This document shows positions 1 through 41,174 of a DNA stretch of 64,000 nucleotides, one piece after another. Made by a program: the position numbers and the translations under genes. Origin of the DNA: Psammoneis japonica (lineage: Eukaryota); assembly GCA_008632985.1 (NCBI GenBank), contig QPGO01000182.1, positions 62,001 to 126,000 on the forward strand, written 5' to 3'. Numbering within the stretch: the first letter of the stretch is position 1; each line of letters starts with the position of its first letter. The notes under the pieces were generated by a model, which made no database searches, had not been told where the DNA came from, and saw nothing but the letters and a program-made list of their open reading frames with translations.

Positions 1-1590
1 TGGTCACATGCTTGCAACATGACTGGCACATCTGGCGAGCGGCTTCACAAGCCACAGTGGCACTGGCGGGAGACGTCGCAGTTTCCTGGGATCAAGGTTC
101 CTTCTTCAAGGATGGGCTTCATGTCAAAGACACCGGTGAAGTGGACACAGCAGCACCTGCTGAATCCGCCAACACAGTCGGCGCCATTGCCAGCCTTGCA
201 CCACAAAATCTTGATGGGACAAGGGAGATGGTCGTAACGATTCTGCATCTTTTCTTCAAAGCGCTTGCAGTCAAACTGCGAGAGGCTCTTGAAGATCTTG
301 AACGTGAAAAAGCCAACCTCCTTGGCCTTGGGGACGTTGAGGTGACGTTCATTTGGCAAGGTGACTGGAGCAACCTGAGTGGAGTCAAAAGCAACCTGTG
401 ATCTGTTTGTCCCTCCAATGCCACGAACCAAAAAGTCAAAAGCTTCGAGATCCAAGAGATGCTGCTTGGTGATTCCAATGCAAGCACCAAAGTCGAAGTC
501 ACGGCTCATGACTTCGTCCACCGTGCGACCACCGAGCTCGGGCCACTTCTTGACTCCACACAAATGCTCGACGGCTTCATCGAGAGCTTTGTCAGACATG
601 CGCCGACCGCTGGCAGCAATCTGGATGTTCATCTCGTCAATCTTGCGGCAAGTGCTCTTGCGACGGCGAGATTCGCGGCAACTCATGTTGGTCTTTTTCA
701 CGAAACTCACCATTGTCACTTAGACGCTGGCGCTTGTTGGACTCGTTCAAGTTGGCAATCCTTTCGCATCCATCCTGCAGCTGAGTCGACTTGGTGCAAT
801 CAATGCTCTTGGTTCCAATGCTGCCGACGGTGCCATCGCAACGTTCGACAGCCGCCATGTCCACCTTGGCAGGAGCAAGTTGGGAGATGCGCGATGTCAT
901 GGCTTGACAGAGAGCTTTGTCGTTCGGTGGGGTGACACCAAAATGCTTGTAGACGGTCTTGGCAGATTCAACAATTGCGGTGATTTCCGACTTGGGTTTG
1001 TTGCGACGTTGCGTGGTGGGGTCACGCCACTTGAGATCGAGCATGGCAACAACATTGAGAGCGTCAAGATGACTCATGAGTCCAATGCTTGCACGCAGGA
1101 TCTCCAGCCAAGCCAAGAATGGTGGGAGGGTGCGTCTTTCCATCAATTTCCTTGACTCCCTTGATTTCCTGTGGTGGGAAATTGAACAGCTTGGCACACT
1201 TGTTGACACCGGCTTGCGTCAGCTGACCGCAGACGGAGACAGCACGCAGTTTCGCTTTCTCTTCTTTGGTGTGCGGGCGCGGCTTGGTCATGGCAAGTTG
1301 CTGTGTTTTTTGCTTTTGCTGTTGCTGCGGCTGTTGTTTGTGCTGATGGAGTTGTGTTGTGTGTCGGTGTTGATTGTGGCGGCCGCGGCAAAATTCGCTG
1401 CGTTGTCTTTGCATGATGGAGAAGCGCCGTTCAATCCAGTGCGGCGCTCCACCTGCTTGTCACACTTGGACGCAGGCTGCGCATTCCCGTCGGCACAAAA
1501 TCCCCGCCAAAGGGATTTTTGAATCGACCAGCACTGAGGTGCTGTGCGATTGAATGCGCACTGGCCATCTTGTTGGTTGTGGCAGCAATT
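1..1590 (-). pseudogene. Copy 1 of a tandemly repeated gene of unknown function, TpA-hypermutated and frameshifted
   Basis: Overlapping minus-strand ORFs (1064..1414, 637..1209, 45..719) join into one protein (MTKPRPHTKEEKAKLRAVS...GVKKWPELGGRTVDEVMSRDFDF...). Homologous to 2448-3975, 3973-4620 and 10620-11670. Confidence 0.6.
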
Positions 1591-2374
1591 CTACGCGCGG
1601 GTTCCGCTGTTGCGTCTTTCCCGCCAAGAAGTTTTTTGGACCAACCGCGTGGTTGCTCGTGGTTCTGTCACGGAGTCATCAATTCATGGTTGTGTTTGCA
1701 TGGAAGAATTGACAAATCTCATCATTCGTTTTACGCTGTTGGTTGCGAAAGAGTCGTTGTCATGGTCGTCACACATGTCGGGCTTGGTGTGGTTCGTTTT
1801 TACCAAACTTCAGTCTTTTCGGTTTTAGGTGACTGTGCTTTCACCACTTTAGAATGATGTTTCTTTTGACTTTGTGCGCGCATGGCATCTCATTCTTTGT
1901 GCTGTGTGTGTAAAATGCACTCTCCAATGCAAGGTTTCATCAGTGTGGTGGCAGGACTCGACCATCAGTGAGTGCGAGGTGGCGGTTTTGAACTGGCGAT
2001 AAAGTTGGTGCATGATGGACGCCATCGTCGGCACGACTGGTGATGCTGGGAGGACACCTGCCATTGTGCATCTGAGTTCAACTCTGTCGCAACATTGGCC
2101 GGTGTGATGGCCTCTAGAGCAGAGTGGAAGGGCAAGACCAGCCAATCTCACGGCACCTGTTAAAGGAAATGGCAAGCAAAGAATGAACGGCGACTGTCAT
2201 GTGAACGCGAACCTCATTTCACTGATCCTTTGCGCCTTTTCCAAATGACAGGAGCAATTTCATCAAATCAACTGCAGTTCTGCAGCACTTTGCATTCATT
2301 GCAATCCCACAAGAGGACCGCCTTGCCAAGGGGAAAGCCACGAGTTTACTGAGAAATGTTTTTGGCCAACACAA

Positions 2375-3975
2375 ATGATGAACAATCCAGCGCCACACGT
2401 CGGCAATGTGTCTGGCAGTCAAAATGATGGAGCACAGCAATCAAACGTGGTCACGTGCTTGCAACATGGCCAGCATGTCTGGCGAGCAGCTTCACAAGCC
2501 ACAGCAGTGCTGGCGGGAGACGCCGCAGTTTCCTGGGATCAAGGTTCCTTCTTCAAGGATGGGCTTCATGTCAAAGACACCGGGAAGTGGACACAGCAGC
2601 ACCTGCTGAATCCACCAACACAGTTGGTGCCATTGCCAGCCTTGCGCCACAAAATCTTGATGGGACAAGGGAGATGGTCGCAACGATTCTGCATCTTTTC
2701 TTCAAAGTGCTTGCAGTCGAACAGCGACAAGCTCTTGAAGATCTTGAAGGTGAAGAAACCAACTTTCTTGGTGTTGGGGACATTGAGGCAGCATCCGCTT
2801 GGCAAGGTGACTGGAGCAACCTGAGTGGAGTCAAAAGCAACCTGTGATCTGTTTGTCCCTCCAATGCCACGAACCAAAAAGTCAAAAGCTTGAGATCCAA
2901 GAGGTGCTGCTTGGTGATGCCCACGCAAGCACTGAAGTCAAAGTCACGGCTCATGACTTCGTCCATCATGCGACCACCGAGCTCGGGCAATCTGGATGTT
3001 CATCTTGTCAATCTTGCGGCAAGTGCTCTTGCAATGGCGGTGCTCGCAGCAACTCATGTTGGTCTTTTCACGAAACTCACCATTGTCACTTGAATGCCAG
3101 CGCTTGTTGGACTCGTTCAAGTTTGCAGTCCTTTCTTTGTGTGTGTCCTGCAGCTGTGCCAACTTGGTGCAGTCAATGCTCTTGGTTCCGACACCACCAA
3201 CGGTTCCATTGCAACGTTCGACAGCCGCCATGTCGTCTTGGTGGAAGCAAGTTGCAAGATGCATGGCATTGTGGCTTGACGGAGAGCCTTGTCATTTGGA
3301 GGGGATGTGTCAAAATGCTTGCAGACGGCCTTGGCAGATTCAACAATTGCAGTGATTTCCAACTTGGGTTTGTTGCAACGTTGAGTGGTGGGGTCGTGCC
3401 ACTTGAGATCGAGCATGATGACAACGTTCAGAGCATCAAGAGAAGTCCAATGCTTGTGCACAGGATTGCCAACCAAGCCAAGAATGGTGGAAGGGTGTGT
3501 CTTTCCATCAATTTCCTTGATGCCCTTGATTTCCTGTGGTGGGAAATTGAACAGCTTGGCATGCTTGTCGACACCGGCTTGCGTCAATTGACCGCAGACG
3601 GAGACAGCATGCAGTTTTGCTTTCTCTTCTTCAGTGTGCGGGCATGACTTGGTCATGGTGTGGTTGTGCTGCTGTTGCGTTGTTGGTTTTGCCATCGCTG
3701 CCACTGTTGTTTGTGTTGATGGAGTGTTGTTGTGTTGTGTCGGCTTTGATTGTGGCAGCCGCGGCAAAATTCGGCACGTTGTCTTTGCACGATGGAGAAG
3801 AGCCATTCAATCCAGCACGGCGTTCCACCCACTTGTCACACTTGGATGCAGGCTGCGCAGCCCAGCCCCGTCGGTGCAAAATCCCTGCCAAAGGGATTTT
3901 TAAATCAAAATGCGCTGAGGTTCTGTGCAATTGAATGCACACTGGCCATCTTGTTGATTGTGGCAGCAATTCTGT
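2375..3975 (-). pseudogene. Copy 2 of the same tandem unit, with an internal deletion and more CpG loss
   Basis: From 2448 the sequence aligns with position 1 onward (tggtcacgtgcttgcaacat vs tggtcacatgcttgcaacat) and gives the same translated motifs. Confidence 0.65.
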
Positions 3976-4620
3976 GATCTGTTTTTCCCACCAACACCAT
4001 GAACCAAACAGCCAGAAGCTTTGAGATCCAAGATGTGCTGCTTGGTGATTCCAATGCATGAACTGAAGTCAAAGTTGGGACTCACAACTTTGTTGATCAT
4101 GTGACCGCCAAGCTTGGGCCACTTCCTGACCACACAACTGAACTCAACGGCTTTGTTTAGATTGTTGTCAGACATGTGCCAGCTGCCAGCAGCAATCTGG
4201 AAGTTCATGTCATCAATCCCATGGCATTGCAGCAATTCTTGGTCATCTTGGTGCAAAACTCACCATTGCAACTTAGACACTGGCACCAGTTGGACTCACT
4301 CAAGTTTGCAATCTTCTCCTTGTGCCCACCACTCAGCAGAGTTGGCAGAGCACAATCAGTGCTCTTGGATTTGATGCCACCAACAGCTCCAACACTTGAC
4401 AGAGAGGCTGCACAAGTTTTTGTTGGGTCAATTGAGAGATGTGCAAATTCATGGCTTGACAGAGATCTTCATTTGGAGGTGGTGGGTCAAATTTCTTGCA
4501 GACAACCTTGGCGGAATCAACAACAGGGCTGATTTTGGACTTGGGCTTGTTGCTGCATTGAGTTGTGGGGTTGCACCACTTGAGGTCCAGCATGACGACA
4601 ATGAGCAAATGCAGTCATGC
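3973..4620 (-). repeat. Partial, more degraded copy 3 of the tandem unit
   Basis: ctgtgatctgttt...gaacca...agcttt..gagatccaag resembles 396-460. Translated VVRKWPKLGG and VVMLDLKWCNPTTQ. Confidence 0.6.
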
Positions 4621-4655
4621 TGTTGCTGAATGTGTTGTTTGGCAAAGACCATCAC

Positions 4656-5085
4656 TGTCGCCAACACAGAGGGTGGCATGGAATAACCTCACAATTTCTA
4701 GAACCTGTTGTTTGCCGTGCCAACACTTTCTATCGTATCTTGTCAAATTCCTAGAGACTGCGGCACAAATTGCTCACTTTGTCAGAGCCAATGATGTCTC
4801 TCTTTGTTCTGTAGCCTGGAACGGGCAATGGCCCAGCGGCCATTCTATCGATTTTTGCGGCAAGCGCCATGGTCCATGGACGCTCGCACAATCGAAATTG
4901 TTCACTGTAAATGTGATGCAGTTGTGGGCATGAACATGTTTCGCTCGTTGGACCTGAGCGATGCACAACGGAAATTAATCGTTGGGAACAATCAAATGCA
5001 CGCGCAATGCTGACACATGCTGGGACATGTTGAGCATGGAACCATTGAGGGAAATTGATGTTCCGTTAATTTGCCGATTTCAACA
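4656..5085 (+). repeat. Possible 5' LTR/leader of the copia element
   Basis: TG...CA-bounded segment just upstream of gag that keeps TpA and CpG, unlike its flanks. There is no second LTR to confirm it. Confidence 0.35.
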
Positions 5086-6637
5086 TCGTTGGTTGAGCCA
5101 ACTTTTGCTGTTGGCGATCGCGCACCGGGTGCACGATGGAAACACACCACGACCTCACTTTTCTCGTGAAAATCGAAACAAAACACGCACACACGCACAT
5201 CAAACCTCTGACGAGGCCATTTCGACAGCTGCCGCCGTCGCTTTTAATGCAACCCTTACCCGGATCGGGTTCAACGCTGCTGCCAGGGCCTGCATTGTGG
5301 CGCAAGGGGTCAACGATGCTGATTCCTGCCACCAGATTCCACTGTCTGAGGTTGGGGACATGGACAAGGGGTTCATCAAGGACACTGTTGACGACCCAGC
5401 CACACAGTTCCCGCACCTGTCGATCAGGAAGTTCAAGGCATTTCGAGCTTTTCTAGATCATCAGACGACACGTGGGGAACCAAGGCAGGCCCAAGCTTTT
5501 AACGACGCCGCTGTCACTCGTTGGACGGAACGTTTGAGTGAGTTGTCAAATGTCCAGAAGGACAAATCGGATGACGACTCTCCAAGTGCTACACCTCTGA
5601 GTCAAATGCATGACTTCCACAGTTGGGACGAGCTGTTTAGGACCGAGCTCCAGCACCACAGCAACGCTGTTACGGGCGTCCCACTTTTGCACATCATTTG
5701 CGAGACTTCGGATGTCACCGATGAGGTGCACAATGCCACTCACTCCAACGTCGATGAGGACCTCATAGCTGCCACGATCCACCAAGGGACTTCATGCAAA
5801 ACTGACAACAAGCGGGTTTGTGATCTCTTGAAAAAGCTGATCATTGATGGGCCAGGGTGGGCCTTTGTCAAACCATCCAACCACGCAAGGAATGGGCGCG
5901 AGGCTTGTCTTGCCCTGAAGAGGCAGGCGGAAGGCTCTGCTGCGACTGCTGCTCACAAGAACTGCGCGTGCGCTCAAATCGCTGCCACAAAACATGCTGG
6001 ACGCGGTCGTCACATGTTCGACCAGTGTGTCACACGTCACCAGAAGGCACACAACGACCTCCTCGACTTGGGAGAGCCGGTGGCAGAGACCAAGAAGGTC
6101 TTGGATTTCCTGAAGGGAATCACGGACCCAAGGTTGGAGACCGGGAAGAGCGTCGTGGATGGCGACAAGGCAAAACTCTCCAACTTTGAGTTGTGTCAAC
6201 AGTGCATGAAGACACTGGTCAAAAACTTGAAAAATCGGGCGTCGGAACACCGCCAAATCATGGCATTGGAACGAGACAATGCCAGGAACAGGAACCAAGG
6301 CCGTGGAAAAGGCAAGGGCAAAGACAAGCCTCGGATTGGGGCAGGCCACTGTCCCAAGGAAGAGTGGGATGACCTTGACCAAGAGGAGAAGGCCGAAGTC
6401 AACAAGCTCCGAGAGAAGAAGAAGCGTGAGAAGGAACGCCGAGCTGCTGCTCTGAAGACGGAGGAAACCAAAGAACCTTCAAGGAAACTTTCTAAGGTGA
6501 CAATCACTGATCCCAAGGACGTTGAAAAGGATGAGACCCCAAAGGAAAAAGGGGGTGCCAATGCTGGGAATCAGTTCGGACGCGGAGCGCACAAGCCTGC
6601 GGCTGCAACTGCTGTTGAAGCCGAGAAAAAGGAATGA
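4982..6637 (+). CDS. Copia gag-like ORF, hypermutated; true start probably near 5200
   Basis: Motifs GVPLLHII, DNKRVCDLLK, NGREACLALK and KKVLDFLKGITD match diatom copia gag with Y->C/H changes. No Tyr seen in 551 aa. Confidence 0.8.
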   Translation: MGTIKCTRNADTCWDMLSMEPLREIDVPLICRFQHRWLSQLLLLAIAHRVHDGNTPRPHFSRENRNKTRTHAHQTSDEAISTAAAVAFNATLTRIGFNAAARACIVAQGVNDADSCHQIPLSEVGDMDKGFIKDTVDDPATQFPHLSIRKFKAFRAFLDHQTTRGEPRQAQAFNDAAVTRWTERLSELSNVQKDKSDDDSPSATPLSQMHDFHSWDELFRTELQHHSNAVTGVPLLHIICETSDVTDEVHNATHSNVDEDLIAATIHQGTSCKTDNKRVCDLLKKLIIDGPGWAFVKPSNHARNGREACLALKRQAEGSAATAAHKNCACAQIAATKHAGRGRHMFDQCVTRHQKAHNDLLDLGEPVAETKKVLDFLKGITDPRLETGKSVVDGDKAKLSNFELCQQCMKTLVKNLKNRASEHRQIMALERDNARNRNQGRGKGKGKDKPRIGAGHCPKEEWDDLDQEEKAEVNKLREKKKREKERRAAALKTEETKEPSRKLSKVTITDPKDVEKDETPKEKGGANAGNQFGRGAHKPAAATAVEAEKKE

Positions 6638-6736
6638 AAGATTGCGCCGACGAGCAAGGACGACAACTTTGTAGAAGTTAAAATAGAATCTTGAATTGAT
6701 TCTCACGTCACTGCTTCTGTCGGCACCAACAGAAAT

Positions 6737-9700
6737 GTGTCTGCACCTTTCGCCAAATCCTTAAGGCGCACTGCCTTGGTCGACACCGATGCAAGCAATG
6801 GCTCCTTTTTCAACGAGCTGGACACGCACACTGACACTTGCGTTGCAGGATCTAGCTGTGTTCCCTTCTCAGATCCCTCCTGCACTGTTGCGGCACATCT
6901 GCACTCAAGCGAATGTGACCCGACAAGGAACATCCCGATGCAGACAGTTGCCACTGTCTGGGTTGACCCGAGTTCCAGCCAGCCATGTCTCCTCATCTTG
7001 AATGAGGCTTTGCACTTTGGGGACAGAATGAAACATTCGCTGATGTGTCCCAATCAGCTCCGTGCTGACGGCTTGACGGTGCATGATGTGCCGAAACAGT
7101 TTGACAGCTCCAGCACTCATTCAATCACCTTCCTGGACTCTAAGGTCCGGATCCCATTGCGACTTGATGGGGTTGTTTCTGCTTTCGAAACAAGCAAACC
7201 GACAGAAGATGACCTTGAAAACTTGCCTGGGCTTGAATTAACCTCGCCCCTTGAATGGGAACCAAGCTCCAACGAGTTCACACAAAAGGAAAACTCAATC
7301 AAGACTGCACCTCAAAGGGTGGCAGGGCTTGGCCATTCCCCAGGGCAGAGCCCAACAAGGGAATGCAGGGACAACAACATGGTGCATTGCATTGCGTCCG
7401 TTAGATCCTACAATCAAGCTTTCAACAGCAACACCATAGCAGCTGGGGATGATGACCTTGAACTCCACAAGGCTCTTGTTTCTGAGGTGAGTGCACAGCA
7501 CCTTGATGCAAAAGGAGATGGATTGCATGACGGGTGCGACATCAATGTTCACGAGGATCATGAGGAGAGACTGCGCGTCTGCGCACTCTCCACAACTGAG
7601 AGCAGGGGCACTCTCACCCCTGAGATTCTGTCTAGAAGATGGGGCATTGGTCTCACTGCCTCCAAGAACACTCTGAAGGTTGCTGCCCAAGCTGGAGTGC
7701 GGAACGTCCATGTGCCCTCAGAAAGGAAGGTGCGGAAAAAGGCACCCTGGCTCAAGTTCCCGAGCATCAAGGACAGGTTCTATGTGGACCAAATGTTCTC
7801 GACTGTGAAATCTATACACGGGGACGTGGGTGGTTCCACATTTACGAATGGTTGTGGATGCGACTGCTTCCATCCATGGAAATCAAAGGGAGATCAGCCC
7901 AATGCAACTGTGTCGTTTGTGCATGACGTGGGTGTCCCGATGGAAATCGTGTGGGATGGGGCTTCTGAGCTCACCGATGGACGCACGAAGGAAATTTGTG
8001 AAGAGTGTCGAATCAAACAAGGGGTCACTGTCCCTCACAGTCCATGGCAGAACTTGGCCAAAGCCTCCATTCGCGAGCTAAAGAAGAAAGTGCGGATTGC
8101 AACAAGGCGTGCGAACGCACCAAAACGCTGCTGGTCCTACTGTGCCAAGTGGGCCACGGCCATCAGGAGGCTCACAGCCTCTGAGCATCCAGAAATGGAT
8201 GGGAAAGTCCCCGAAGAGGACATTGCGGGTTCAACGCCAGACGTCTCAGCTCACGCCCTCTTTGACTGGCACCAGCCGGTGCACTTTATGATGCCTCAGG
8301 CAAAATTTCCCTTTGAAAGGAAGTGCATCGGGTGCTGGTCAGGTGTCACAGAAAACTGGACAGACAACATGGCATTTGCAATCCCACCTGAATCAGGTGC
8401 ACCTCTCATTTGGAAGGATGTGTGGGCTCTGCCTGAGGATGACCTAAAGACTGACGCGATTCGGCAAAAGATTGAGCAACTCGATGCCAGTCTTGAACTT
8501 AGGCTGGGGGACGGTAAGGAAGGGAATGACAAGTTCCCAGAACCACCCGAAGACCTGTTTGGCAACGAAGACGCCAATGCAGAGCCGTTTGAAGAAGATG
8601 CAACTCATCCAGCAGCAGACGATTTCATGCCGGAGGCAATGGATGAGCATCTAATGGCAGAACTCAGGCTCCCACGAGGTGGTGAGCTACAACACGCAAA
8701 AGTCATTGCTGGGGAGCGCGATGCAGACGGGAATCCGACAGGGAAGTGGCACGAAAAGCCTGTCCTTGATTCGAGGCTTTACGAGGTAGAGTTCCCGGAC
8801 AGATCTGCCGATGCGTTCACGGCTAATTTGATTGCCAAGAACATCCACTCCCAGGTTGACGGAGAAGGACGATCTTGCCAGATTGTCAAAGAGATTGCAG
8901 GTCACCAAAGTGACACGCGTGCAGTGCACAGGGATGATGGTTTCTTTGTCACAAAGAGCGGCACGCGCAGACCCCGCCGAATGACGATTGGCTGGGACTT
9001 GCAATTCGAGTGGAAAGATGGAAGCACTAGTTGGCTCCCTTTGTCGGAAGCTGAGGAGTCCTTTCCCGTCCAAGTCACGGAATGCGCTGTCGCAAATGAG
9101 ACAGCGAGCAAGCCAGCATTTAACTGGTGGGTTCGAGACGTGTTGCGTCGTCGAGCCAGGATGGTCATGAAAGTCAAGACCAGGCACTGGAAGCGCACCC
9201 ACAAATTCGGCATTGAATTGCCAAAATCCGCAGAGCAAGCCTTGACACTGGACGAACAATCCGGGCTCGACCCATGGGGAAAGGCAATTGAGAAGGAAAT
9301 GCGCAATGTAATGCCAGCCTTTGAATTTGTCGATGACGACCAGATGCCGGTCGGATGCAAGGAGATCAAATGCCACATGGCATTTGATGTCAAGTCGGAC
9401 TTGACTGGGAAAGCGCGACACGTGGCCGGAGGCCACATGACCGACCCACCAAAAGAATCGACTCATTCTAGTGTGGTCTCATGCGACAGCGTGAGGACAG
9501 CTCTTATGATGGCAGCTCTGAATGACTTGGAAGTCATGTGTGCCGACATTCAGAACGCTTGTCTGAATGCACCAACAAAGGAACGTTGTCACACGATTGC
9601 TGGCCTGGAATTTGGCAAGCAGAATGTCGGTCGACCCATTAAGATTGTTGGAGCTCTGTGGACCAAAGAGTTCTGGCGCTGCTTTTAGGGAACATGTGGC

Positions 9701-10195
9701 AGCGGCGCTAAGGCCAGCAGGTTTCACTTCTAGCAAGGGCGACCCCGACGCATGGATGCACAAGAACACTGAGCCGGATGGCTTCAAGCACTGGGAACAT
9801 GTGCTTGCACATGCAGACGACTTGCCAGTTGTCTCGCACGAACCCCAGAAGTTCATGGATTGTGTGGCTTTGAGACATGTGCTAAAAGAGGGAAGCATCA
9901 AGGAACCGGAAGAGCACCTTGGTGCCGAGGTGAAAAAGTTCCAACTATCTGACTCGGACGGCAAGACACGTTGGGCCCTTTCATCTGATTTGCATGTCAA
10001 ACGGGCCATTGCCGACATTGAGTTTGAACTCGGCCATGCAGGCCGGGGACTCAAGAAGAGAGTCACCATGCCGTTGAGCTCGGGGCATTGCCCTGAGCTT
10101 GACGCTACGCAGCTGGACACCCGGAGGGCAACTTGCTTCCAGGGACTCATTGGCGTTTTGCGTTGGATGGTGGAAGTGGGGCGCATTGATGTTTT
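6737..10195 (+). pseudogene. Copia pol (protease, integrase, reverse transcriptase), frameshift near 9655
   Basis: Protease ELDTHTDTCVAG. Integrase FYVDQMF / VWDGASE / PWQNLAKASIRELK. RT FDVKSDLTGKARHVAGGH, ADIQNACLNAP, KSSGAAFR and EHVLAHADDL (YVDD position). Confidence 0.9.
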
Positions 10196-11670
10196 GCTCC
10201 ATCAAGAAGTTTTTTTTACACCACACAGTTGCTGCACATGCTGGTTCCGGACACAGAAACACAAATTCATGGTTGTCTCTGTGGAGGAAACAGATCAGCA
10301 AGAGCTGGTTTTGAGCGCATCTGACAGCATGAGGAGTGTTGCTTTGGCTCATGTGCCAGTGGGTGACTTCAGGTCTGAATGGCATTTTGTTTTTCATCAT
10401 TCAGCGTGTGTGTCACTTTGACAGCTTTGCTCTTGATGTGCGTGTGTGCATGCTTGTGTGCGGCAGTCACAGAAAATGTGATGCACTCAGCATTGGTTGT
10501 TTGTGCTGTGTTTTTTGTGTCTCTTGTTGGTTGGTCACAGATGTGAGGGATGCTGTGAGAAGCAGCTGCAACACAGTTGACGTGATGGCAGTCTTGGGCC
10601 TGCCAGCAGCACAGCCCAACATGGCACATTGGCAACATTTCTGGCCACCACAATGGTGCTCAACAACCCAATGTTGTTGCACACTGGCAATGTGTCTGGC
10701 AGTCAAAATAATGGAGTGTGACAATCAAACATCTTGCATCAGCAACACATCTGTCAAGCACCAGCACTTCACAAGCTGCACTGGCACTCATGGAAGGAGA
10801 TGTTGCAGCTTCTTCCTGGGGTCAAAGTTCCATCTTCAAGGGTGCACTTCATGTCAAAAATGCTGGCAAAGCAGACACAGCAGTGCTTGCTGAATTCTTG
10901 AACACAGCCACAGCCAGCACCAGCAGCAGCAACCTTCTACAAAGTTTTTGCAGCCAAAGGGAGATCATGGTCACAGCAACTTGTGCATCTTCTCTTCAAA
11001 ATGCTTGCAGTCAAACAGTGACAAGGCTCTTGAAATCATTGAATTTGAGAAAGCCAACCTCCTTTGCCTTGGGGACATTGAGGCAGCTTCCATTTGGAAA
11101 GGTGACAGGAGGAACCCAATGACAGCTGGGAGAAATCACTGATTTGTTGTTGCCACTGTAACTCCATGAACCAAAACCTCAAATGCTTTGTGATCCAGGA
11201 CATGCTGCTTGGTGATTCCAGTGCATCCAAAGTTGAAGTTGGGTCTCATGACTTTGTCAGCCATGCAGCCACCAAGCTTGGGCCACTGCACAACTTTACA
11301 CAGATGCTTGACAAGATCATTGAGATCTTTGCCAGACATTTGCTGACTGCCGGCAGCAATCTTGATGTTCATCTTGTCAATCTTGTGTGGCAAGGAGACT
11401 TGTGGTGGCAGGACTCATGCATCATGAGTGTGCTTGTTGGATTTGTTCAAGTTCACAATCTTTTCCTTGCATCTGCCATGCAGCTGAACCAACCAAGTGC
11501 AGCCAATGCTCTCAGATCTAATTTTTTGTCAATGGCTCCATCACAATGGCACTTGACAGCCACCTGTGCCACCAACCTTGGCGGGAGTCAATTGTGAGAT
11601 GCATGGTGTCATGGCTTGATGGAGAGCTTTGTCGCTTGGAGGGGCGGGCATCAAAAAATGCTTGCAAATG
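10195..11670 (-). repeat. Copy 4 (spacer plus gene remnant) of the tandem unit, highly degraded
   Basis: 10195-10280 resembles 1615-1700. 10680-11670 resembles 2400-3330 (KVVQWPKLGG, GITKQHVLD). Confidence 0.6.
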
Positions 11671-13216
11671 ACCTTCCTTGCACACCTCGCAAGAGCAATG
11701 CATCCACCCATTCAGGGCAAGAGGATTGGCTTTGAGCTTTGAATGCAGACAGCCAACTCCTGAGTTGTTGGGCAGGCCACTGCTTTTGTTGTTGCATCAT
11801 CTGTTCTGCTGAACAACAAGTTTTGCTTCTCCAAGAAGAAAATGATGCGCTTTTTCAGACTTGCTCCAGCTCTGGGTGAAATGACATGGACAATTTTCTG
11901 TCATTTTTCTGAACTTTGATCATCATCCATTCATTGATGTGTTGCACAGATCTGGTTTGGATGCCTCATGTGTTGACTTTGTGCGAAGCAACAAGACAGA
12001 AAAAATCCTTCAAATGCAACAGGTTTGTTCTCACAAGAAGCACACAATGTCCACTTTGTGTCATTGATTTGCACCACTTCTGCAGCTGCAAAGTTGCAAG
12101 AAGTCATGAGAAACTGCTGTGCAAACTGCCGTGGAAACTTGCAACAAAAAACACATGTTGGCCCACAACACAGAATCCCACATGTTGGTCAGTGCATGAA
12201 GTTCACTCCACATGTCTGTCTGCATGAACATTTTCATCACTGGCCTGAAAGCACTCTCCATGTGTGAGGGAAAAAAAACAATGTCAAATTTTTGATGTTG
12301 TGAGTTCTTGAGCAAGAAGCACAGGGCTGCACATCTTGAAACTCTTGCCAATTTGTTCACTCACATGGACAAACAACACAAAGCTTTGCTGTCAAATTCA
12401 ACAACCCTTTGTGTTGGAGTTAAATCCCCTCCTTCAGAACAAGTGCAAAACAAAGCAGGTGCTTTCAAACACAGAGGAGGGCATCTCACCTGCATTGGAG
12501 TGCCCTTGGGTTGGTGCACAAATCATTTTTGGTGGAGGAGATGCAACCCCAACATGCAGCATTTGCGCAAAATTGCACAAAACATCCAGTTTTGCACACC
12601 ATCATTTCATGCATGGCTGGAACAAGTCTTCCTCACCTTCTCAAAAATGAGAATGGCAGCCACCAACCTGAAGTGTGCTGGCAGCAACAATGGCGGGGGG
12701 CTTGCAAGTTGCAGGACATCCAGCTGCAAGCGCCAAGATTGGCGCCATTTTGTGAGAAGTCACAAACTCATTTTTGTCCCAAAATTGCTGGTGTTTGGCA
12801 ATTTTTTGATTTAGTTGGTCTTTTTAAATGTTGGGTTCATCCCATCAGGAGCCCGACACAGAGGCCTCCATGTGTGGGCACAAAATTTTGCGCGGTGCTC
12901 ACTCTGGCGCTGCCGTTTTGCGCGCTGCAAGTGAGGAGCATGCTCTCACGCAGGCTGCCATGCATGCAGATTTGCTGCCAGAGCTTGAACTGTAAGGCAG
13001 AGGCCCTGCTGCATGCACATCATGAGGCCCGGGCCCACCCCTCTTGGCATGATCTGCCCATCATTGTGATGGCACTACTGTCACAGATGCTGTTTTGAGC
13101 AAGGCAGACAAAGCACACACACAGAATCCGCAACTTTCACACACCCGAGATCCTGACAAAATAACTTCAAAGTTCAAGAAGAATTCCAGAATGATGGCCA
13201 TGATTTGGCATGATCC

Positions 13217-16200
13217 ATGATGACAGATGGCTGGAACTTGAACGAAACAGAGCGTGAAACACCGATGCAAATGCAAATGGCCGCCCCTGATGTCTTTTTG
13301 TGTCATGCTGGCTATGGAGCACAAAAGGCGGGTATTGTGTCACTGGTCTACGAAAAATTGAAACGCCGGAGCATTACCAATGTGTTCTTCGACAAGGAGA
13401 GCTTGAAAAACGGGGAACCCGTCGCACCCCACGTGATACGAGGGGTCGCTACGGCCAAGGTCGTTGTCGTCTTTCTCAGCCCTCAATTTCTTTGTCGGGA
13501 GTGGACGCTGAAAGAGCTGGAGATAGCCTTGGCGCGAGACAATGGCGCATCTCCCCGACGTGAAGACGCACGTCGATTTCGCGAGGAAAGATCTTTCACA
13601 GAATTTCTCGAGCACAAGCTTTCCCAAAGAGAGCAAACTCTGGTTAAGGACCTTGAGGATGGGCCTCCAGGGGAAGTTCTGCCTCTCTACTTCCACCTTA
13701 GTCCAAGGATATTAGCAAACGATATTTACGCGAGCTTGTGCAGAGAGAATCCAATGTGACCTCGCAGTTCGCGGAGTGGTCAATGGAGGAGGAAGGGTAC
13801 CCCCGCGCTGGAAAATGGCTTTGACCGCATTGAAGGAGATAAAGGGGCCAAGGCACTACCAGAATACGACCAGACGGAACAGCAGTATGCCAAAGTGGCA
13901 GCAGATTGGATTGAGAATAGGTTACCTGGACGATCCAGATTGAATGAGCCAATTGACCCATCGCCGAGAACGGTAGCGGGGAGGTTAACCGAAAGCTGCA
14001 GTGTTTCACCGATAAAGATCGAGGACCTACTTCACCTCAAAGTGAAAGATTATTTCCCGCTCCTTGGAGAGGAGAAGCACGAGTTTGGCCTTCTTCAGGT
14101 TTTGCATATTACTCGCGAAGGCAAGCCCACTGCGACAGATTATCACATACTCGATCGCCTCGAGGAAAGAGGAAGAACCGAGAGTGGCATTCATCACGGC
14201 GACCTTGACCTCAGAGATTATATCAATGAGGATGAGAAACCTAGTCTCGGACTCCATGTTGACAATGGCAGAGTCTTGATTGCAGGCAAAACGTACGACA
14301 CGTCGAAAATTCGCCTAGGTAGACGCTGGTACAAGTATGTCAGGGCGAACGCTATGGTCGACAAGTGCTTCCGAGACTGCTGTGCCGTCTCTGACTTGCT
14401 GGAAGAGCCCATATGCAGGCAAGAGGAAAGAGTGGTTCTCGCGGTTGTTACCGCTGCACACGAAGCTTCTTTGGAAGAAACGCATGAAACAGAGGGAGGT
14501 TGGTGGTTTAAGTGGGGCACAACACCGTTTAACCGCCAAGTAAGGAGTCCAATTTGGTTTGACGCGGTAGTCGGAATCCGCTTGCGATGCTTCGCATTGA
14601 GGAGAAACGTGGATCGCTGGGAAATAGCAGGCGGCTATGACGCTAGAAACCGCCAAAACTTTGAGAGTTTGCGACTAGAGATGATGGAGTGGATGACTCC
14701 AAATGTTCTTCGTTTGTTCCCAGGTTGGGCAACAGTTTCTGTGGATTTTAGGCGTCTCAAGACCGAAGATGACATCCTGTCAGATCTAAAAGAGCAAATA
14801 CTACGTAGGTCACCAATTGCGGAGCCTGTTTCACAACCAGCGAGTCTGGGCGTGCTAGGTTGGACTGCCATGCCTTTTGTTGTTTTCTCTTTTTGCCTTG
14901 CTTGCAGTGATGTAGTCCCCGGAATAGATGTGATCCCATGGATGGACAAATGGCGCAAGAAGGTACAAGAACATTTTGTTACTTTCTTTTTTTGCGCTTT
15001 GGTCGGTGTGATTGGTGGAAGCGCCGCCCGAACTGATCATCTAAGGCTAGTTGTCCCAGTGCGGCTGATGTTGGCAGCAAATTTGTGGGAAAGTTCGTCA
15101 GCCATCGCTAGGGAGGAAGAATGCGCTGAAAACACGTGGATTGGCGCAGTGATCGCCGCAGTGTCCGGTGTTATGGTTGGAGTTTTTATTACTTCGTTTC
15201 TGCCCATTGGGGTGCTGCGTCGAAGAGTCAATACAGAAGACTTACCAGAAAACAGAGCCGTCGAATTTATTTTGCATTCGCCTGAAGCTCTTTACACTAA
15301 TAAGTTTGAGCTTGATCAATATCTGAACTGGGAAAGAGGCGACAAAGAGGCTTCTGTGGAAGAGAAAGCTAAAATGCTTGGATCTATATTGGAAATGATG
15401 AAAGCCCTCTCCACCGTTGGGTCATTCAAGATTCGACCGCTAAGGAAGAATGATAAAGGCCGGGCTGTGTCCCTTCTAGATAAGATCAAAGACCCCGAAG
15501 ACCTAAAGAGAGAGCTGCGAGATCTAATTTTCTGTACTGACGATTCGGGGTCTTCTTTCTCCCTCAACCTAAACGTCAACGACGACGGCTCTGTTACCGT
15601 TTCTTTTATTTTGAGTGATGTTGAGCAGTTGACATCGTTGCGAGACAAATGCCTACTAGGTGGAGAAGCCGAGGATGAGCTAACAAGGGCATTTCGGCGG
15701 CGAGTCAATGAAGATATTCGAATCGATCTCACTTCCGTCGCATTAATGTATGAGTCAATGCTCTTGCGGTTTGAATTACTCACAGAGCACCAGAAACAAA
15801 AGCTCAAGGAATGTAAGAACACCGACCGAATGCATGTGAACGGACCTGCTGGGAGCGGGAAAACTTATATTGGATTGAACAAAGCCTTTAGCCACCTCGA
15901 AAGAAAGAACAGCAGAGTCCTCTACGTGTGTCGAAATATGTCACTCGGGTACTTCTTCTGCAAGTGGCTTTTTCACAGGCTTCAAAAGCTTCGTCAAGGA
16001 ACTGCAGAACTATATAGGATTTTTGTTATGGTTGACGAGCGCCCGTGCAAGATTTTAGGGGTCCAATACGATGATGCAACCGGAAGAGGCATTCTCGAGC
16101 AAACTGCACATAGTAAGGACACGTACGGTTTGATTATTGTCGATGAGGCCCACGATGTCTTTGCGTTGGACAAGCACCGCCAACGCAATGAGTTCGGCGG

Positions 16201-17974
16201 TGAAGTCTCAGATCTGCTAGAAAAGAACAAAGATCGTGATTTGGTTTTGCTGTCAGACCTTGCTCAAGCATCTGTCCCGGAAGACCTCATAGATTTTCCG
16301 ATACCACCTTCCGTAGAACTTTCGGAGGTGTGTCGATGCAGTAAACGCATTATGTTGGGAGCCCATAGCTTCCGACTCTCCAGTGACGCTGGAGTCGAGT
16401 GCTCTCATGATTCCGATGGATTGCCCTTAAGAACATACCTATTCGACGCGCCAGAAGACGACACCAATATCTACTCTATTTACTCAGAAAAGATATGCGC
16501 TGGGATCAAGCAAGCTCTCGGAGAATTTTCTTGTCTCGATCTTCATGGTCGCCTCGCCATAGTTGTGCCCGATCAGAAATTTCTGGAAGCTTTACGTGAG
16601 AATTTGATTGACTCACTCAGGCTAATTAAAAACACCAATTCGGGAAAAGCATTCGCGCTCGTATCTGCTGCTGAAGCGTATGAAATTTGGCATTTGGACG
16701 TTGAATCGCGTACAGAGTCGAGCATTATTTTTGACACAATCGATGAAATGGACGGACTTGAAAGTCTCTTGGTATTTGGTGTTGGACTTGACGCTCCAGT
16801 TTATCGAAAACCAAGGCTTGTGTGCTCACGAATCTACCGCGCAATTACTAGAGCGCAGCTATCATTCTCATTGATTAACGAAAGAGTCGATAATGGTTGG
16901 TTCAATTGGCTCGAAATGATGAGAATTGAACAAGGCGAGGAAAAAGTTGATCTAAAGGTAGAGGCGCAGAAAGTGTCCAACACGTTTGCGTCGGACATAG
17001 TCAATGTGTACGGTGACTTTGATCAGACGAACGCTGAGCGCATCCAGCCCGACGCTCAGGCGAAAGAAGTTGCGACCGAAGCACGTCATCAAGCAAGCCA
17101 CTCCTCTCCGGATGGTCCTCTGGCTCCAACAGAAACACACTTCCGACCAGAACAAGAAACCGAGAATAAAATCTGGGACGGCTCTCCAAACCAAACGGCA
17201 GAAAAAATGATGACTCGTGCGCGCCCTTCTTCATTCGATCCACGGATGTCTCAGGCCCACGTCTCGCCGATTACAGCTGGTCAACGAAACGTCTCTAGCT
17301 TGTACACGCAAGCACTTTTGGATGGTATCGAGACAAATGTGGGAGAGTTGTCGATGGTAGGTATTTCGGATCCTAGCAGTATTTGGCTTGTCAATTCTGG
17401 TGCCGATCCGTATGTTTTTTTGTCGTACAGAGGAGTCGATACCAAGGAGACTATTGCTCGTCCTACGCATTGGTTCCTATCAGAAATATTGGGTCTAACC
17501 GCTTTCTTTGACAACGATAGCATGAAATCTGGTGACAATATGATGCGTCAAATAATGGAGGCTGCGTATAGCTCTTCGCATGCTTTGGTTTTGTTGTCAC
17601 CTGGTTATCGAAAGAGTGCTTACTGTGTCAAGGAGCTTAATACCTTCATGATGCGTCGGAGCAAGGGAAACATAGTTGTGCTCCCATGTCTTTGGAAACT
17701 ACAAAAAATCGATCAGCAGTTCGCACCAGCTGTGAAGGAGATCAATTGGTGGATAAAGTCTCGGACTGAGGATCCGGCAGATTATTTGGTGGACATACTG
17801 TGGCCAAACCTCATTGAGATCTTCAAAGGTGGACGAAAAGACCGTTCATATTGGGATGCGGTGCCATTAAAATACAGGCTAATCCAGTACGTCGAAGAGA
17901 ATCGGGGGAAGCAAAGCTTTCCGAGTATTCCATCGAGTCTGGAAAGCTTTGTTCGAGTTCACAAAGGTGGATAG
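13217..17974 (+). CDS. TIR - transmembrane - Schlafen-like SF1 helicase - TIR protein; probably one gene of about 1570 aa, interrupted near 13700-13850
   Basis: N-terminal TIR DVFLCHAG..VFFDKESL..VVFLSPQFL..WTLKELE. Three hydrophobic segments. Helicase LLTEHQ, GPAGSGKT, LYVCRN, IIVDEAHD, DEMDGLE, IYRAITRA. C-terminal TIR VFLSYRG..FFDNDSM..LVLLSPGY..YCVKELN. ORFs 13217..13759 and 13895..17974 share a frame. Confidence 0.85.
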
Positions 17975-23864: not shown

Positions 23865-26499
23865 ATGGCTGCAGTGTTAATCACGATTCTCCAACTAGCA
23901 TGCAGTGCTCCTCTTCTTTCGGTACATGCGTTCGTCGCAAACAACCAACAACCGCAAGCTCATGCAACGCAGCCATCATCATGCACAGCTCGACATGTCA
24001 CTTTACACGATTTTGATGACGGAACGTCCAAATTGAAATCCTTTGCCACGAAATTCGTCAAGATGCGCGCTTTTGAATCGAGATTAGAAGTGCTGGAACG
24101 TGGAGCACCAACGGCCTTGTCCAACTTTTTTGAACCCCATCTCAACAGTTTCTCAGTCAAACCAGGAAGTGTACAGGTGTGAATGTGTGTGTGAGAGAGA
24201 GTGGTACAGTTTTTTCGAGGCGTTGCTGTTCTCTGATAATTCTCTTTTTCTGCTTTTTTCCTTTCTACAGCGAGTCAGCATCACAAGCACCTGCTACGCC
24301 CTACAAACATTAATGTCCGCAGTGACTCGTCCTGTATGATTCCGTGGCGTCCATGGACATGTCACCCTTGTTGGAGGACGAACATCGTCATCGATGGAAC
24401 AAGATGCTGACAAGATTCAAGTTCGAGCAGTTGTTCAGGCGTTGCTCAAGGCGGAATGGCGGGAGGATGATTTGTTTCAGGTACCGTTATTGCTTCATAC
24501 AATTTTGGCTGTAGACAAGTCGCGTGCTGTAGTTGGTGATAATATGGATGAGCAGCTTGCAACAAAGGTAAGACTATGCAAGAAGATTTGTTTGTTCTCC
24601 ATCGAAGATATTCAGAATGGTCTCAGTAGCTCAAAACATGTTTTTGGTACAGGTCCGAAAGCTTGTAGAAGCTGTGTTGTCGGCACGCCCAACACGACGA
24701 AGTGGATCCAACCAACAGTATTCGGATTATATTCAATATCTCTGCTGCCAGGCATATGCGACTCTTTACGAATCGACCGATGTTCCGACAGCGCAAGGCA
24801 TTGATGAAGGCGGGCGTCGGGGGTCTTCCCGAAAGTGCCCTCCCGACGGTGCGGCTCTCAGCTCTCGCTTGCACTTGCTCGGTATGTAGTCGGCACAATG
24901 ACTGCATTTTGCAATCAATTCTGAATTATGGTACGCGTTGAATCTTACACACGTTTGCTGCTTCTTTTCTATTCAAGATGTGCCGAAGTTAGTTTCAATG
25001 AGCTGTGTCGACAGCTAGCATATCGAACGGCTGGTGAACGGACTTCGTTGATGTGATTCGTCTAGCTTACTCCCTGTTGACCTATGTCACTGCATCAAAC
25101 AGTCTTGCTGGTACTGCGGGAAGAGAGCTTGTTCCAGGTGCTGGTCCTTCACCGGGGACAAGGGTCAGCCCACCCAACAAACGACTCGTCGCAGCTGCCT
25201 TGGATGCATTCTTTGCGGAACAAAACGATGATGGGTTATGGGGCAAGGGACAGCCAATCTACAAGTCCTTTCGACGTAGTGGAAGGAATGTGGAAATGCT
25301 TTTGTATTCGTTGTAGCCGATACTTTGGGATGCTTGATGGAGAAACTCCCATCAGAGGATTTTCGCCCTCACCTTGACGGATTGCAAAAGTCATTGAAAT
25401 GGATAGAGACGCATCAAACGGTTGAGGTCATTCCGGATTATTGTGATGTCGAGAGCGGGCAGTGCTACGGTAAGGCCCTTCGAGGCTGGGCCTCTCCACA
25501 TCTCACCGAAGATACGGGCCCAGTGTCTTGGAGCACGGCTCAAACGCTCACGTGCGTGTCGAGGATGCGCCAAGTTATTCGGGATTTGCAACACACGGAC
25601 GTTCTTGCCGAATTTCAGGGTGTGGAGAACACCGAAAAGACACCCAACTTGCTGCTTGGAACCGACTTTTAGATACGGATTTGGGGGCGTGTAATGGAGG
25701 GCCGAGTCGCACGTTAAAGGAGGTCCTCGAGGAGCGCGTCATTACGCCCTTCTCGGAGTCGAGTAGTAGTCCGTCGTATGGGCAGCTTACTCTGCTATCC
25801 TCTTTGGTCCACCGGGTACTGCCAAGACGACGATTTGTGAATCTCTCGCCGAGAGGATGGGTTGGGACTTTCTTGTCATTGATACTGCAGCATTTCTAGC
25901 GGATGGCCTATCGAATGTTGCAGCGCGGATTCGCTATGTATTTGAACGCCTCCAATCCTTGGAGCGATGCATCATTTTGTTTGACGAGATTGAGGAGTTT
26001 TGTCTTGACCGCGAAACTCCAGGATTGGGAATGGAGAGTCGCATGTTGACAACTGCCATGCTCACAGCAATCAATGATTTGAGACGAGCCAAGAGGAGCA
26101 TCTTCTTCTGGCGACAAACCGACTGCGAGCATTCGACTCAGCAATCACTCGACCAGGTCGTTTTGACATGCAGCTATTCGTAGGTACTCCCAATATGGAA
26201 GCGCGGTGCATTCAACTTCGACAAAAGCTTGCATCAGTCCCTGTTAGCGAGAAGCGCAAGAAGAAGCCGAAAAAGCTTACAAATCCTTCCTCGAGTCCGT
26301 TTGGACGGAAGATGCAATGTTTATGAATTATTTGGAGGGCATGCAGTTTGCAAAAGCATGTGCTAATATTGTCGCATCGCGAATGGAGCTAACAGAAGAA
26401 GAAATGGGAGCAATACTCGAGACTCAAGCTGCAGTTATGACAGCAAGGGGAGCCGTTCGCGATGAATACCTTGCCTCGATGGAAATGTCAAGACTGTAG
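23865..26499 (+). CDS. AAA+ ATPase with likely bipartite plastid presequence, multi-exon; frameshifts probably assembly errors
   Basis: Signal peptide then AF (SVHA-FVANN). Walker A GPPGTAKT, Walker B ILFDEIEEF, and RPGRFD. Single-base deletions relative to the copy at 43537-44538. Confidence 0.8.
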
Positions 26500-27074
26500 A
26501 CGATGATGTTTCTCTAGCTACTGTAAACTAGTTTTCAAGTCGAATGGCACCACCATAGGCCCGACACCAAGACGCCTTTGTCGTTGTCGTTGCTCATTGG
26601 TGTCCAAACGGCTATTAGTGACCATTTCATGGGCGCTCCATTTCGTCGGAATTGGTTTATGTAGTTAGGTTTTTCCTCTAAATCAGATCACCACTTTTTA
26701 CGCTTTTCGCATTCTGGGTGTTACTCGTAGTTAGTTCCATGCTCTGGCTCTGTCGATTTCACCCTTCGTGCTATTCATTTTTCCCGCGGAACCGTGGACC
26801 ACACCGAGCGCGAACCCAGATTTTTTTCTTCGCGCTGATTTTTTTTTCGCGCGCCGCGGTCAAAGGCGCGTTGGCTCGAAACACATCCTCAGACGCCTCC
26901 AGGGCAATGATCACCAGCAGCCCCCCGGTGCGCCATCTGGTGAACAATCCTCTCAAGGCTGGAAGGGTTCTTTAGACGTGGTGTCGAGTCCTGAATCAAA
27001 AAACTCGTCCGAAGATAACTCGCTTGTCAACGGGTGCAAGCACAGACCTTCTGCTTCTTCCTCGACGGACGTCT

Positions 27075-33850: not shown

Positions 33851-33859
33851 TTGTCACAT

Positions 33860-41172: not shown

Positions 41173-41174
41173 AA

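Follow-up and report, generated by a model that had tools for sequence, protein, structure and literature searches.

The copia-type retrotransposon at positions 4982 to 10195 of a 64,000-nucleotide stretch of Psammoneis japonica DNA (assembly GCA_008632985.1, contig QPGO01000182.1, positions 62,001 to 126,000; hereafter the window) presents two long open reading frames (ORFs), gag and pol, that are almost free of tyrosine. This raises the question of how an element can lose nearly all of one amino acid while its frames stay long, and of which process, acting on which nucleic acid, would leave such a footprint. A first-pass annotation, made from the sequence alone, had proposed that the element was inactivated by missense recoding of tyrosine to cysteine or histidine, through TA-to-TG and TA-to-CA changes. 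That interpretation is partly supported. It is right in its core, the loss of tyrosine by these changes with no new stop codons, and it is too narrow, in that the process extends over whole repeat blocks and the element carries other lesions. The data very probably describe a dead, 3'-truncated relic of the Ty1/copia type, lying in a repeat block that has been hit by a local mutation process converting TpA to TpG or CpA at the DNA level.

Loss of Tyrosine at Conserved Positions

The gag frame contains no tyrosine and the pol frame four, as first described; the lengths given at that time (551 and 983 residues) depart from the 552 and 997 residues of the stop-to-stop frames merely through the choice of ORF start. 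The ORF at 9567-10418, which holds the frameshifted continuation of pol, likewise lacks tyrosine. Ordinary tyrosine contents are found both in the host ORFs of the window (1.9-4.5%) and in 99 relatives of the pol protein (2.47-4.63%), which excludes an alternative genetic code or a tyrosine-poor family. None of the 99 relatives is tyrosine-poor, and none of 145 further representatives falls below 1.5% tyrosine, these being representatives of 50% identity clusters behind which mutated members may hide.

Conserved tyrosine columns were defined as those with tyrosine in at least 70% of 27 relatives for pol and in at least 7 of 11 relatives for gag. At the 26 pol columns, where the relatives keep tyrosine in 92% of cells, the window has histidine 15 times, cysteine 7 times, tyrosine 3 times and threonine once; at the eight gag columns it has cysteine 5 times and histidine 3 times. 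Combined, 31 of 34 conserved tyrosines are lost (histidine 18, cysteine 12, tyrosine 3, threonine 1). All of the histidines at these sites are encoded by CAY and all of the cysteines by TGY, accounting for 30 of the 34 tyrosine codons, so that the loss proceeded by the TA>CA and TA>TG changes that had been proposed. Within pol, 436 of 558 conserved columns for other residues are retained, compared to 3 of the 26 tyrosine columns (Fisher p = 3.8e-12), and seven intact relatives retain 20-24 of those 26. The intact relatives thus carry tyrosine, rather than cysteine or histidine, at the sites in question, and the neighboring host genes use tyrosine normally.

Four motifs had been singled out as positions that are normally tyrosine. 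Three of them, RHWKRTHK (codon at 9185), NACLNAP (9560) and HVLAHADDL (9798 and 9810), fall in columns with tyrosine in 25-27 of 27 relatives. The last of these is the reverse-transcriptase active site, read from the codons CAT GTG CTT GCA CAT GCA GAC GAC TTG, and its two histidine positions are tyrosine in 26 and 27 of the 27 relatives, respectively. The fourth motif, REACLAL (gag codon at 5906), has tyrosine in just 2 of 11 relatives and does not belong to this set.

Spectrum and Direction of the Changes

To place the tyrosine changes in a wider spectrum, each difference from the relatives' consensus at 582 conserved pol columns was classed by whether a single TA>TG/CA step (TA-type) or a single CG>TG/CA step (CG-type) explains it. 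Among the 144 differences of the window, 47 are TA-type and 28 CG-type, compared to 1-4 TA-type and 4-9 CG-type among the 68-165 differences of seven intact relatives at the same columns. The TA-type share is therefore 33% in the window and 1-3% in the relatives (Fisher p = 6e-29), and the leftover 69 differences fall within the ordinary range of divergence among relatives. Strand use is near even, with 25 TA>CA and 22 TA>TG changes in pol. Other codons that contain or border on a TA step are also altered: codons ending in TA account for V>A (5), L>P (3), I>T (2) and I>M (2), and A>G changes across a codon boundary for T>A, R>G and K>E (3 each) and M>V and I>V (2 each). All substitutions that the first-pass annotation had predicted are accordingly present, with the exception of L>S, which was not seen (0 cases). 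Overall, the relic holds 48 TA dinucleotides, compared to about 191 expected at the relatives' median TpA observed/expected ratio (o/e) of 0.67, and its GC content is 0.528, compared to about 0.47-0.50 in most relatives.

The direction of change is best seen in a pair of short repeats elsewhere in the window. The two copies (371 bases, 91% identity) differ at 32 positions, all of them transitions, with 0 transversions. In the depleted copy, 25 of the 29 TA dinucleotides of the TA-holding copy read TG (13) or CA (12), and 4 TA are common to both. The 371-base repeat shows no sign of a reverse transcriptase. A third copy of this repeat, whose copies measure about 300-370 bases, lies at 34780-35082 on the minus strand and forms an inverted pair with the depleted one, about 540 bases apart within the depleted block; one member of this inverted pair has TA loss only, the other both TA and CpG loss. 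The copy at 39881-40251, TA-rich inside depleted DNA, may be too young or too short for targeting.

Regional Depletion of TpA

The inactivation had been presented as an event of the copia gag and pol frames. This did not hold: TpA is scarce throughout block 1 (positions 1-13100) and in two further repeat blocks. The three repeat blocks have a TpA o/e of 0.0-0.2, compared to 0.5-0.6 for host genes supported by Pfam. CpA and TpG are in excess within the TpA-poor blocks, and TpA o/e is 0.0 over entire 200-base windows of depleted DNA. The depletion ends at the limits between repeat blocks and host genes, not at the edges of single elements; at the right edge of block 1, for example, TpA o/e is at least 0.64 from 13601 onward, at a host gene encoding TIR and helicase domains. 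The first roughly 400 bases of that gene have a TpA o/e of 0.17-0.32 (13001-13600), possibly a spill-over of the mutation process.

Within block 1, depletion is milder in the copia relic (TpA o/e 0.17) than in its flanks (0.02-0.06). More CpG is also left in the relic, with an o/e of 0.72 (range 0.53-0.84), compared to 0.13-0.6 in the flanks. Because of both properties, the relic would be a younger insertion into DNA that had already been mutated. In the most TpA-poor stretches (10001-13000, 30001-35000 and 49001-54000), CpG o/e is 0.08-0.3, and TpA seems to disappear from this DNA more quickly than CpG does.

The depleted blocks contain little that can be recognized by other means. At E<=0.001, no Pfam family was found in the 20 scanned flank ORFs of block 1 or in the scanned ORFs of blocks 2 and 3, and at E<=0.5, 53 ORFs of the depleted blocks gave noise-level matches only. 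The scan covered 103 of the 112 window ORFs of at least 130 residues; the remaining nine lie in 4979-10418, and the three sense-strand ORFs among them were scanned separately. Rfam gave 0 matches over the whole window, neither ribosomal RNA nor any other RNA family. Host ORFs, in contrast to the blocks, match TAFII55, ArfGap, PPR, SAP/CS, PALP, AAA and TIR/helicase families, identifying the window as eukaryotic nuclear DNA. A fragment of the host PALP protein matched bacterial clusters only when compared with a protein atlas.

Two duplicated segments of host DNA allow the role of repetition itself to be judged. One, carrying a fragment of an AAA-ATPase gene, is present at 25499-26772 and 43532-44781 (1.27 kb, 92.7% identity); the other is an inverted repeat at 41175-41876 and 45225-45926 (0.7 kb, 94.7% identity). 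Both keep a TpA o/e of 0.42-0.58, and duplication alone is therefore not the trigger.

Dependence on Flanking Bases

The TA dinucleotides that survive in the depleted blocks are not a random sample with regard to their neighbors. Relative to host DNA, the density of surviving TA is 0.019 for RTAY (R, purine; Y, pyrimidine), 0.14 for mixed contexts and 0.44 for YTAR (chi-square p = 1.6e-26). By tetranucleotide, the relative density falls from TTAA (0.78) through CTAA/TTAG (0.46), GTAA/TTAC (0.22), CTAG (0.21), ATAA/TTAT (0.14), CTAC/GTAG (0.11) and ATAG/CTAT (0.07) to GTAC (0.024), ATAC/GTAT (0.019) and ATAT (0.012). Survival is thus about 65-fold apart between ATAT and TTAA; host DNA is an imperfect baseline, as transposon composition may differ, and such a difference cannot account for a 65-fold range. 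The same preference appears at sites whose ancestral state is known, the tyrosine codons and the short-repeat pair, where RTAY was converted in 31 of 31 cases and other contexts in 24 of 31 (p = 0.011). This dependence on context, with RTAY almost entirely erased and YTAR largely spared, is new here.

Identity of the Element and Its Lesions

The description of the element as copia-like was borne out by its domains and relatives. The pol ORF aligns to proteins of about 1370 residues that carry PF07727 (RVT_2), at E = 0, 46-53% identity and over 95-99% of its length. By itself, it gives only weak Pfam matches, first to rve at residues 411-450 and then to RVT_2 at residues 885-965 of the 6695-9685 frame. 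The latter match has E = 0.029 and 14.4 bits, compared to a cut-off of 31.6 and to 58.7 bits for an intact relative; relative P0001 matches RVT_2 at E = 8.4e-16. The frame is collinear with full-length relatives, with integrase upstream of reverse transcriptase. The gag ORF has 14 homologues (E 5e-100 to 6e-41) with 9-19 tyrosines apiece, and in all 11 intact relatives that were tested, it matches the ORF immediately 5' of pol (E 6e-70 to 8e-24); no Pfam gag family matches the gag frame of the window or those of the relatives. Homology to the relatives' gag begins at about residue 80 (about 5219), and the leading 80 or so codons (4979-5218), which precede the gag start of the relatives, may be untranslated or belong to a long terminal repeat (LTR).

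With regard to the features that define the Ty1/copia group, an RVT_2-type reverse transcriptase, integrase before reverse transcriptase and gag before pol are all present, and flanking LTRs were not found. When 4600-5300 was aligned locally with 10200-13200, transitions being tolerated, nothing longer than 43 columns emerged. Most likely, the 3' LTR was lost with the truncation at about 10232. The missing LTRs mark an incomplete copy and do not speak against membership in the copia family. Of the roughly 1370 residues of the relatives' pol, homology covers those up to about 1140-1165, which leaves out the RNase H part and the 3' end; tblastn with the relatives' pol gave no additional pol match elsewhere in the window.

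The junction between gag and pol was compared in 16 intact relatives, picked from 80 metagenomic loci for having an upstream flank. In 13 of them (L001, L003, L007, L008, L009, L017, L020, L023, L024, L027, L032, L041 and L048), pol continues in the frame of gag and opens directly after a lone TGA; in the other three (L055, L072 and L078), gag-pol is a continuous ORF of 1857-1930 residues. Judged from these sequences, the single TGA suggests that pol may be expressed by readthrough of the stop codon. The window retains this native TGA and has a second in-frame TGA, at 6692-6694, that is foreign to the family layout.

Open Frames without Selection

The persistence of the frames follows from the spectrum of change. 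Enumeration over all codon contexts shows that TpA>TpG/CpA makes 0 changes from sense to stop and removes TAA and TAG, in agreement with the earlier claim that, edge cases aside, no new stops arise from sense codons. CpG decay can produce a stop only by CGA>TGA, and changes of the kind made by repeat-induced point mutation (RIP), CpA>TpA, would produce stops by CAA>TAA, CAG>TAG and TGG>TAG. In the gag/pol frame across 4982-10195, there are 0 TAA, 2 TAG and 10 TGA, all of them between the ORFs or past the frameshift. The frames can thus be long without selection, because the process cannot create stops and erases TAA and TAG. It is important to note that the long ORFs are inherited and are no evidence on function.

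The statement that the frames stayed open needs to be qualified, however. They are interrupted by an in-frame TGA beyond the native one at 6635, by a frameshift near 9650-9660, and by the end of homology at about residue 1140-1165 of about 1370. As to the extra TGA, CGA>TGA is the sole stop change that the two dinucleotide processes can make. Inactivation by missense alone was likewise overstated: the recoding of tyrosine stands, and the extra TGA at 6692-6694, the +1 frameshift, the 3' truncation and the CpG decay (28 of the 144-145 changes at conserved pol columns) come in addition. The element has been killed more than once, through its HADD active site, the second in-frame TGA, the shifted frame and the loss of its 3' part.

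Features of the Window

The coordinates of the main features are collected in Table 1.

Table 1. Positions of the copia relic, the short repeats and the TpA-depleted blocks within the window.
Feature	Position	Strand	Evidence or remarks
TpA-depleted repeat block 1 (holds copia relic)	1-13100	.	TpA o/e 0.02-0.21 per kb; CpA and TpG at 1.15-2.27
gag ORF	4979-6634	+	552 aa stop-to-stop; 0 Tyr, 15 Cys, 26 His
TGA closing gag, frame shared with pol	6635-6637	+	sequence; native to family
Extra in-frame TGA between gag and pol	6692-6694	+	sequence; foreign to family layout
pol ORF	6695-9685	+	997 aa stop-to-stop; same frame as gag; 4 Tyr, 28 Cys, 38 His
pol first frame (protease, integrase, reverse transcriptase start)	6707-9661	+	tblastn, four relatives, 48-53% identity
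pol second frame, after +1 frameshift near 9650-9660	9654-10232	+	tblastn and sequence
Reverse-transcriptase active-site stretch	9798-9824	+	HVLAHADDL, YVLCYVDDL in relatives
TpA-depleted block 2	26800-39800	.	TpA o/e 0.02-0.41 per kb; CpG o/e 0.08-0.28 in 30001-35000
Mutated short-repeat copy	35621-35992	+	4 TA left; inside block 2
TA-holding copy of same short repeat	39881-40251	+	29 TA; TpA o/e 0.64-0.68, 0.0-0.39 either side
TpA-depleted block 3	48300-54200	.	TpA o/e 0-0.10 per kb from 49001; CpG o/e 0.11-0.49

Three further observations concern the surroundings of the relic. A repeat of about 1.5 kb is present in four copies or part-copies around it (1-1592, 2448-3973, 3972-4601 and 10686-11675; 70-91% identity). 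The differences between these copies are mostly transitions, with 6-19 adjacent CA/TG doubles per pair and, in addition, many differences of the CpG type; the doubles would result if an ancestral TA or CG common to two copies had decayed independently in each. The host gene that adjoins block 1 is a pair of ORFs in one frame (13214-17971, plus strand) with an in-frame TGA at 13757-13759, encoding TIR, a ResIII/DEAD/Schlafen-like helicase and a second TIR, an immune-like architecture. Finally, an ORF at 40657-41217 (plus strand), in a small patch poor in TpA and CpG, matches Pfam NAD-GH (PF10712) at E = 7e-6.

A Model for the Mutation Process

The model starts from the data themselves, in which A:T-to-G:C changes fall on TpA of either strand and are confined to repeat blocks. 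Tyrosine is the sole amino acid with TA-initial codons, and the process therefore removes it almost completely by turning TAY into CAY (histidine) or TGY (cysteine); codons of the form xTA, and A-initial codons preceded by T, are also altered. A slower CpG>TpG/CpA decay proceeds in parallel, as expected for methylated repeats. Since both strands are used evenly and non-copia DNA is depleted as well, the substrate is likely to have been integrated double-stranded DNA, rather than RNA or cDNA. The process would be enzymatic, carried out by an adenine deaminase of the ADAT/TadA kind or by a thymine-modifying enzyme, and guided by chromatin state or repeat recognition.

Five points weigh against this model or limit it. 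First, mutation after insertion is deduced for the copia element only indirectly, from its flanks, the short-repeat pair and the even use of strands, because there is no LTR pair for comparison. Second, histidine outnumbers cysteine at tyrosine codons (18 versus 12), a mild asymmetry without an explanation. Third, no TpA-poor copy was found among the 80 metagenomic loci of relatives (TpA o/e 0.49-0.95), which had been fetched with patterns containing tyrosine, a bias toward intact copies that disfavors mutated ones. Fourth, the outcomes at half-matching sites (RTAR, CA 6 versus TG 2; YTAY, 7 versus 7) do not separate a purine 5' of the T from a pyrimidine 3' of the A as the flank that decides conversion. 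Fifth, the one DNA sequencing run that contains the stretch (X1), in the form of contigs and including sister copies, may be the assembly's own sample, and it provides no independent check of base calls and no polymorphism data. On the side of the model, the sister copies in X1 differ from the window at 137 transition and 16 transversion places; 40 of these 153 differences, making up 32 events, include 6 adjacent CA/TG doubles and 15 CpG-related changes. No RNA sequencing run containing the stretch is listed.

As to the chemistry, the favored candidate is an adenine deaminase that acts on DNA; modification of thymine is a live, if unlikely, alternative. In the latter case, oxidation of T at TpA by a TET/JBP-type enzyme would give 5-hydroxymethyluracil or 5-formyluracil, which mispairs with G and leads to T>C. 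TpA is self-complementary, and A>G on one strand is therefore indistinguishable from T>C on the other. TpA and TpC are the preferred sites of 5-hydroxymethyluracil in dinoflagellate DNA, and 5-formyluracil is a source of T>C changes. The literature searched contained no paper joining 5-hydroxymethyluracil, TpA and dinoflagellates. The sole published proposal for such a signature, in a preprint by Mettrop et al. (2026, bioRxiv 10.64898/2026.01.13.699255), is an ADAT2-like adenine deaminase.

Editing before integration, by an ADAR-like or other adenosine deaminase acting at UpA/TpA on the element's RNA or first-strand cDNA that was then inserted, in the manner of APOBEC-type editing of retroviruses, is clearly improbable. 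The element is a retrotransposon, and metazoan ADARs prefer a U 5' of the edited A, according to the discussion in the same preprint (Mettrop et al., bioRxiv 10.64898/2026.01.13.699255). An excess of histidine over cysteine at tyrosine codons (18 versus 12) would also suit some minus-strand editing. Such editing predicts a single outcome, however, whereas CA and TG products number 25 and 22 in pol and 12 and 13 in the short-repeat pair. Moreover, the non-copia flanks are more depleted than the relic, the 371-base repeat bears the same change without any sign of a reverse transcriptase, and the limits of depletion are those of repeat blocks and host genes. ADAR-type editing of retroelement transcripts was rejected on the same grounds, namely even strand use and the depletion of non-copia flanks and of a short non-coding repeat.

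An artefact of assembly or base calling, in which modified TpA in repeat chromatin was misread as TG or CA by a long-read caller, is very improbable. Systematic miscalls at modified bases are known from nanopore data. On the other hand, X1 contigs are identical to the window over 261-695 bases in six of the eight pieces listed, with the reservation that X1 and the assembly may derive from one sample. The outcome at any given site is fixed as either TG or CA, and a TA-rich repeat copy lies within depleted DNA. CpG decay, the frameshift, the truncation and divergence of the ordinary kind further give the relic the look of a genuine pseudogene.

Even less credence is due to an undirected origin, be it neutral decay of the usual kind or a foreign base composition. 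Host DNA is already somewhat TpA-poor (o/e 0.5-0.6), and old repeats do decay. Against this stand the TA-type share of differences (33% versus 1-3% in seven relatives), the 0 transversions among 32 short-repeat differences, the roughly 65-fold range of survival between ATAT and TTAA, and the 200-base windows with a TpA o/e of 0.0. That the recoded gag and pol are still functional, domesticated or read under another code, as their lengths of 552 and 997 residues might suggest, is next to impossible, given that YVDD now reads HADD, that the frames carry a frameshift and an extra TGA and lack the RNase H part, that RVT_2 scores 14.4 bits (cut-off 31.6; intact relative 58.7), that open frames are predicted by the spectrum without selection, and that host genes use tyrosine normally.

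Returning to in situ mutation of repeat DNA, a more far-reaching version can be offered tentatively. In this eukaryote, probably a diatom, a genome-defence enzyme, either an adenine deaminase on DNA or a thymine modifier, guided by chromatin state or small RNA, may edit integrated mobile DNA at TpA, with a preference for RTAY that largely spares YTAR. Such a system might be old and widespread among algae of the SAR group (stramenopiles, alveolates and Rhizaria), given that a chlorarachniophyte, discussed below, shows this TpA-only signature as well. It would mirror fungal RIP in opposite chemistry, silencing elements through missense changes only, with long tyrosine-free ORFs as the trace left behind.

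If real and enzymatic, the process would represent a second lineage with a TpA-directed editing defence, here acting on retrotransposons to near saturation, at a time when TpA-editing chemistry has only just been reported. The preference for RTAY over YTAR, a rate well above that of CpG decay and the sharp limits between repeat blocks and host genes provide handles on the enzyme. In annotation, gene finders will call the long ORFs that hypermutated elements retain, and these ORFs fall below Pfam thresholds; a tyrosine-free ORF with surplus cysteine and histidine is a cheap flag for such relics. Dating by LTR divergence would be badly biased in genomes of this kind.

Comparison with Known Systems

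RIP, in Neurospora and other ascomycetes, changes C to T, chiefly in CpA, and thereby gives rise to TpA and AT-rich DNA. The process described here resembles it as a dinucleotide-directed transition mutator that disables mobile DNA in place and works on both strands, producing skewed blocks beside normal genes. Its chemistry and direction are opposite, however, with TpA destroyed, CpA and TpG in excess and GC content raised. RIP makes stops, whereas TpA>TpG/CpA makes none, and duplication as such is no trigger here. RIP itself was rejected for the window on the depletion of TpA, the excess of CpA and TpG, the raised GC content and the sparing of duplicated host segments.

The ADAR and APOBEC enzymes of animals act on RNA or single-stranded cDNA and leave a one-strand signature. 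Common to them and the present case are a transition signature of the deaminase type and a neighbor preference, directed against selfish nucleic acids. They differ in that both strands are here changed about equally and DNA other than retroelements is included.

Among diatom Ty1/copia elements (CoDi), passages of Maumus et al. (2009, PMC2806351) give the order of pol as protease, integrase, reverse transcriptase and RNase H, and describe putatively active copies in which at most one stop or frameshift separates gag from pol. In Phaeodactylum tricornutum, according to the same passages, all LTR retrotransposons tested were cytosine-methylated, in CpG context at the one locus probed (PMC2806351). 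The gag-TGA-pol layout and the CpG decay found here fit those descriptions. The passages on CoDi make no mention of TpA-directed decay (PMC2806351). The literature searched contained no report of TpA-directed repeat decay in a diatom, and by title, none of the papers listed described a TpA-erasing process besides the preprint on Bigelowiella natans.

The closest parallel is provided by that preprint (Mettrop et al. 2026, bioRxiv 10.64898/2026.01.13.699255), which describes mutation accumulation lines of B. natans. Two integrated viral regions have a mutation rate about 1000-fold above that found elsewhere in the genome, and the changes are almost only A>G/T>C, all on TpA, for which an ADAT2-like DNA adenine deaminase is proposed. 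The target is integrated DNA of giant viruses (nucleocytoplasmic large DNA viruses, NCLDV) and virophages, and the remaining genome mutates normally. Among the genes there that are poor in TpA and rich in CpA and TpG, reverse-transcriptase and DDE domains are enriched. The main text of the preprint nowhere uses the terms tyrosine, stop codon, nonsense, missense, context or trinucleotide, though its supplementary tables may hold flanking-base data (bioRxiv 10.64898/2026.01.13.699255).

Several differences separate the two cases. New mutations were measured in culture lines of B. natans, whereas the end state alone is seen here; the host there is a chlorarachniophyte, here another eukaryote; and TpA is reduced only 1.8-fold in the NCLDV region there, compared to an o/e of 0.0-0.2 in the blocks of the window. 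Both cases show A:T-to-G:C changes on TpA, which make up 25 of 32 differences in the short-repeat pair, all in one direction. Both yield TpG as well as CpA, here 22 TG and 25 CA in pol and 13 and 12 in the repeat pair. In both, finally, the changes are limited to foreign or mobile DNA, as seen here in the contrast between repeat blocks at a TpA o/e of 0.0-0.2 and host genes at 0.5-0.6.

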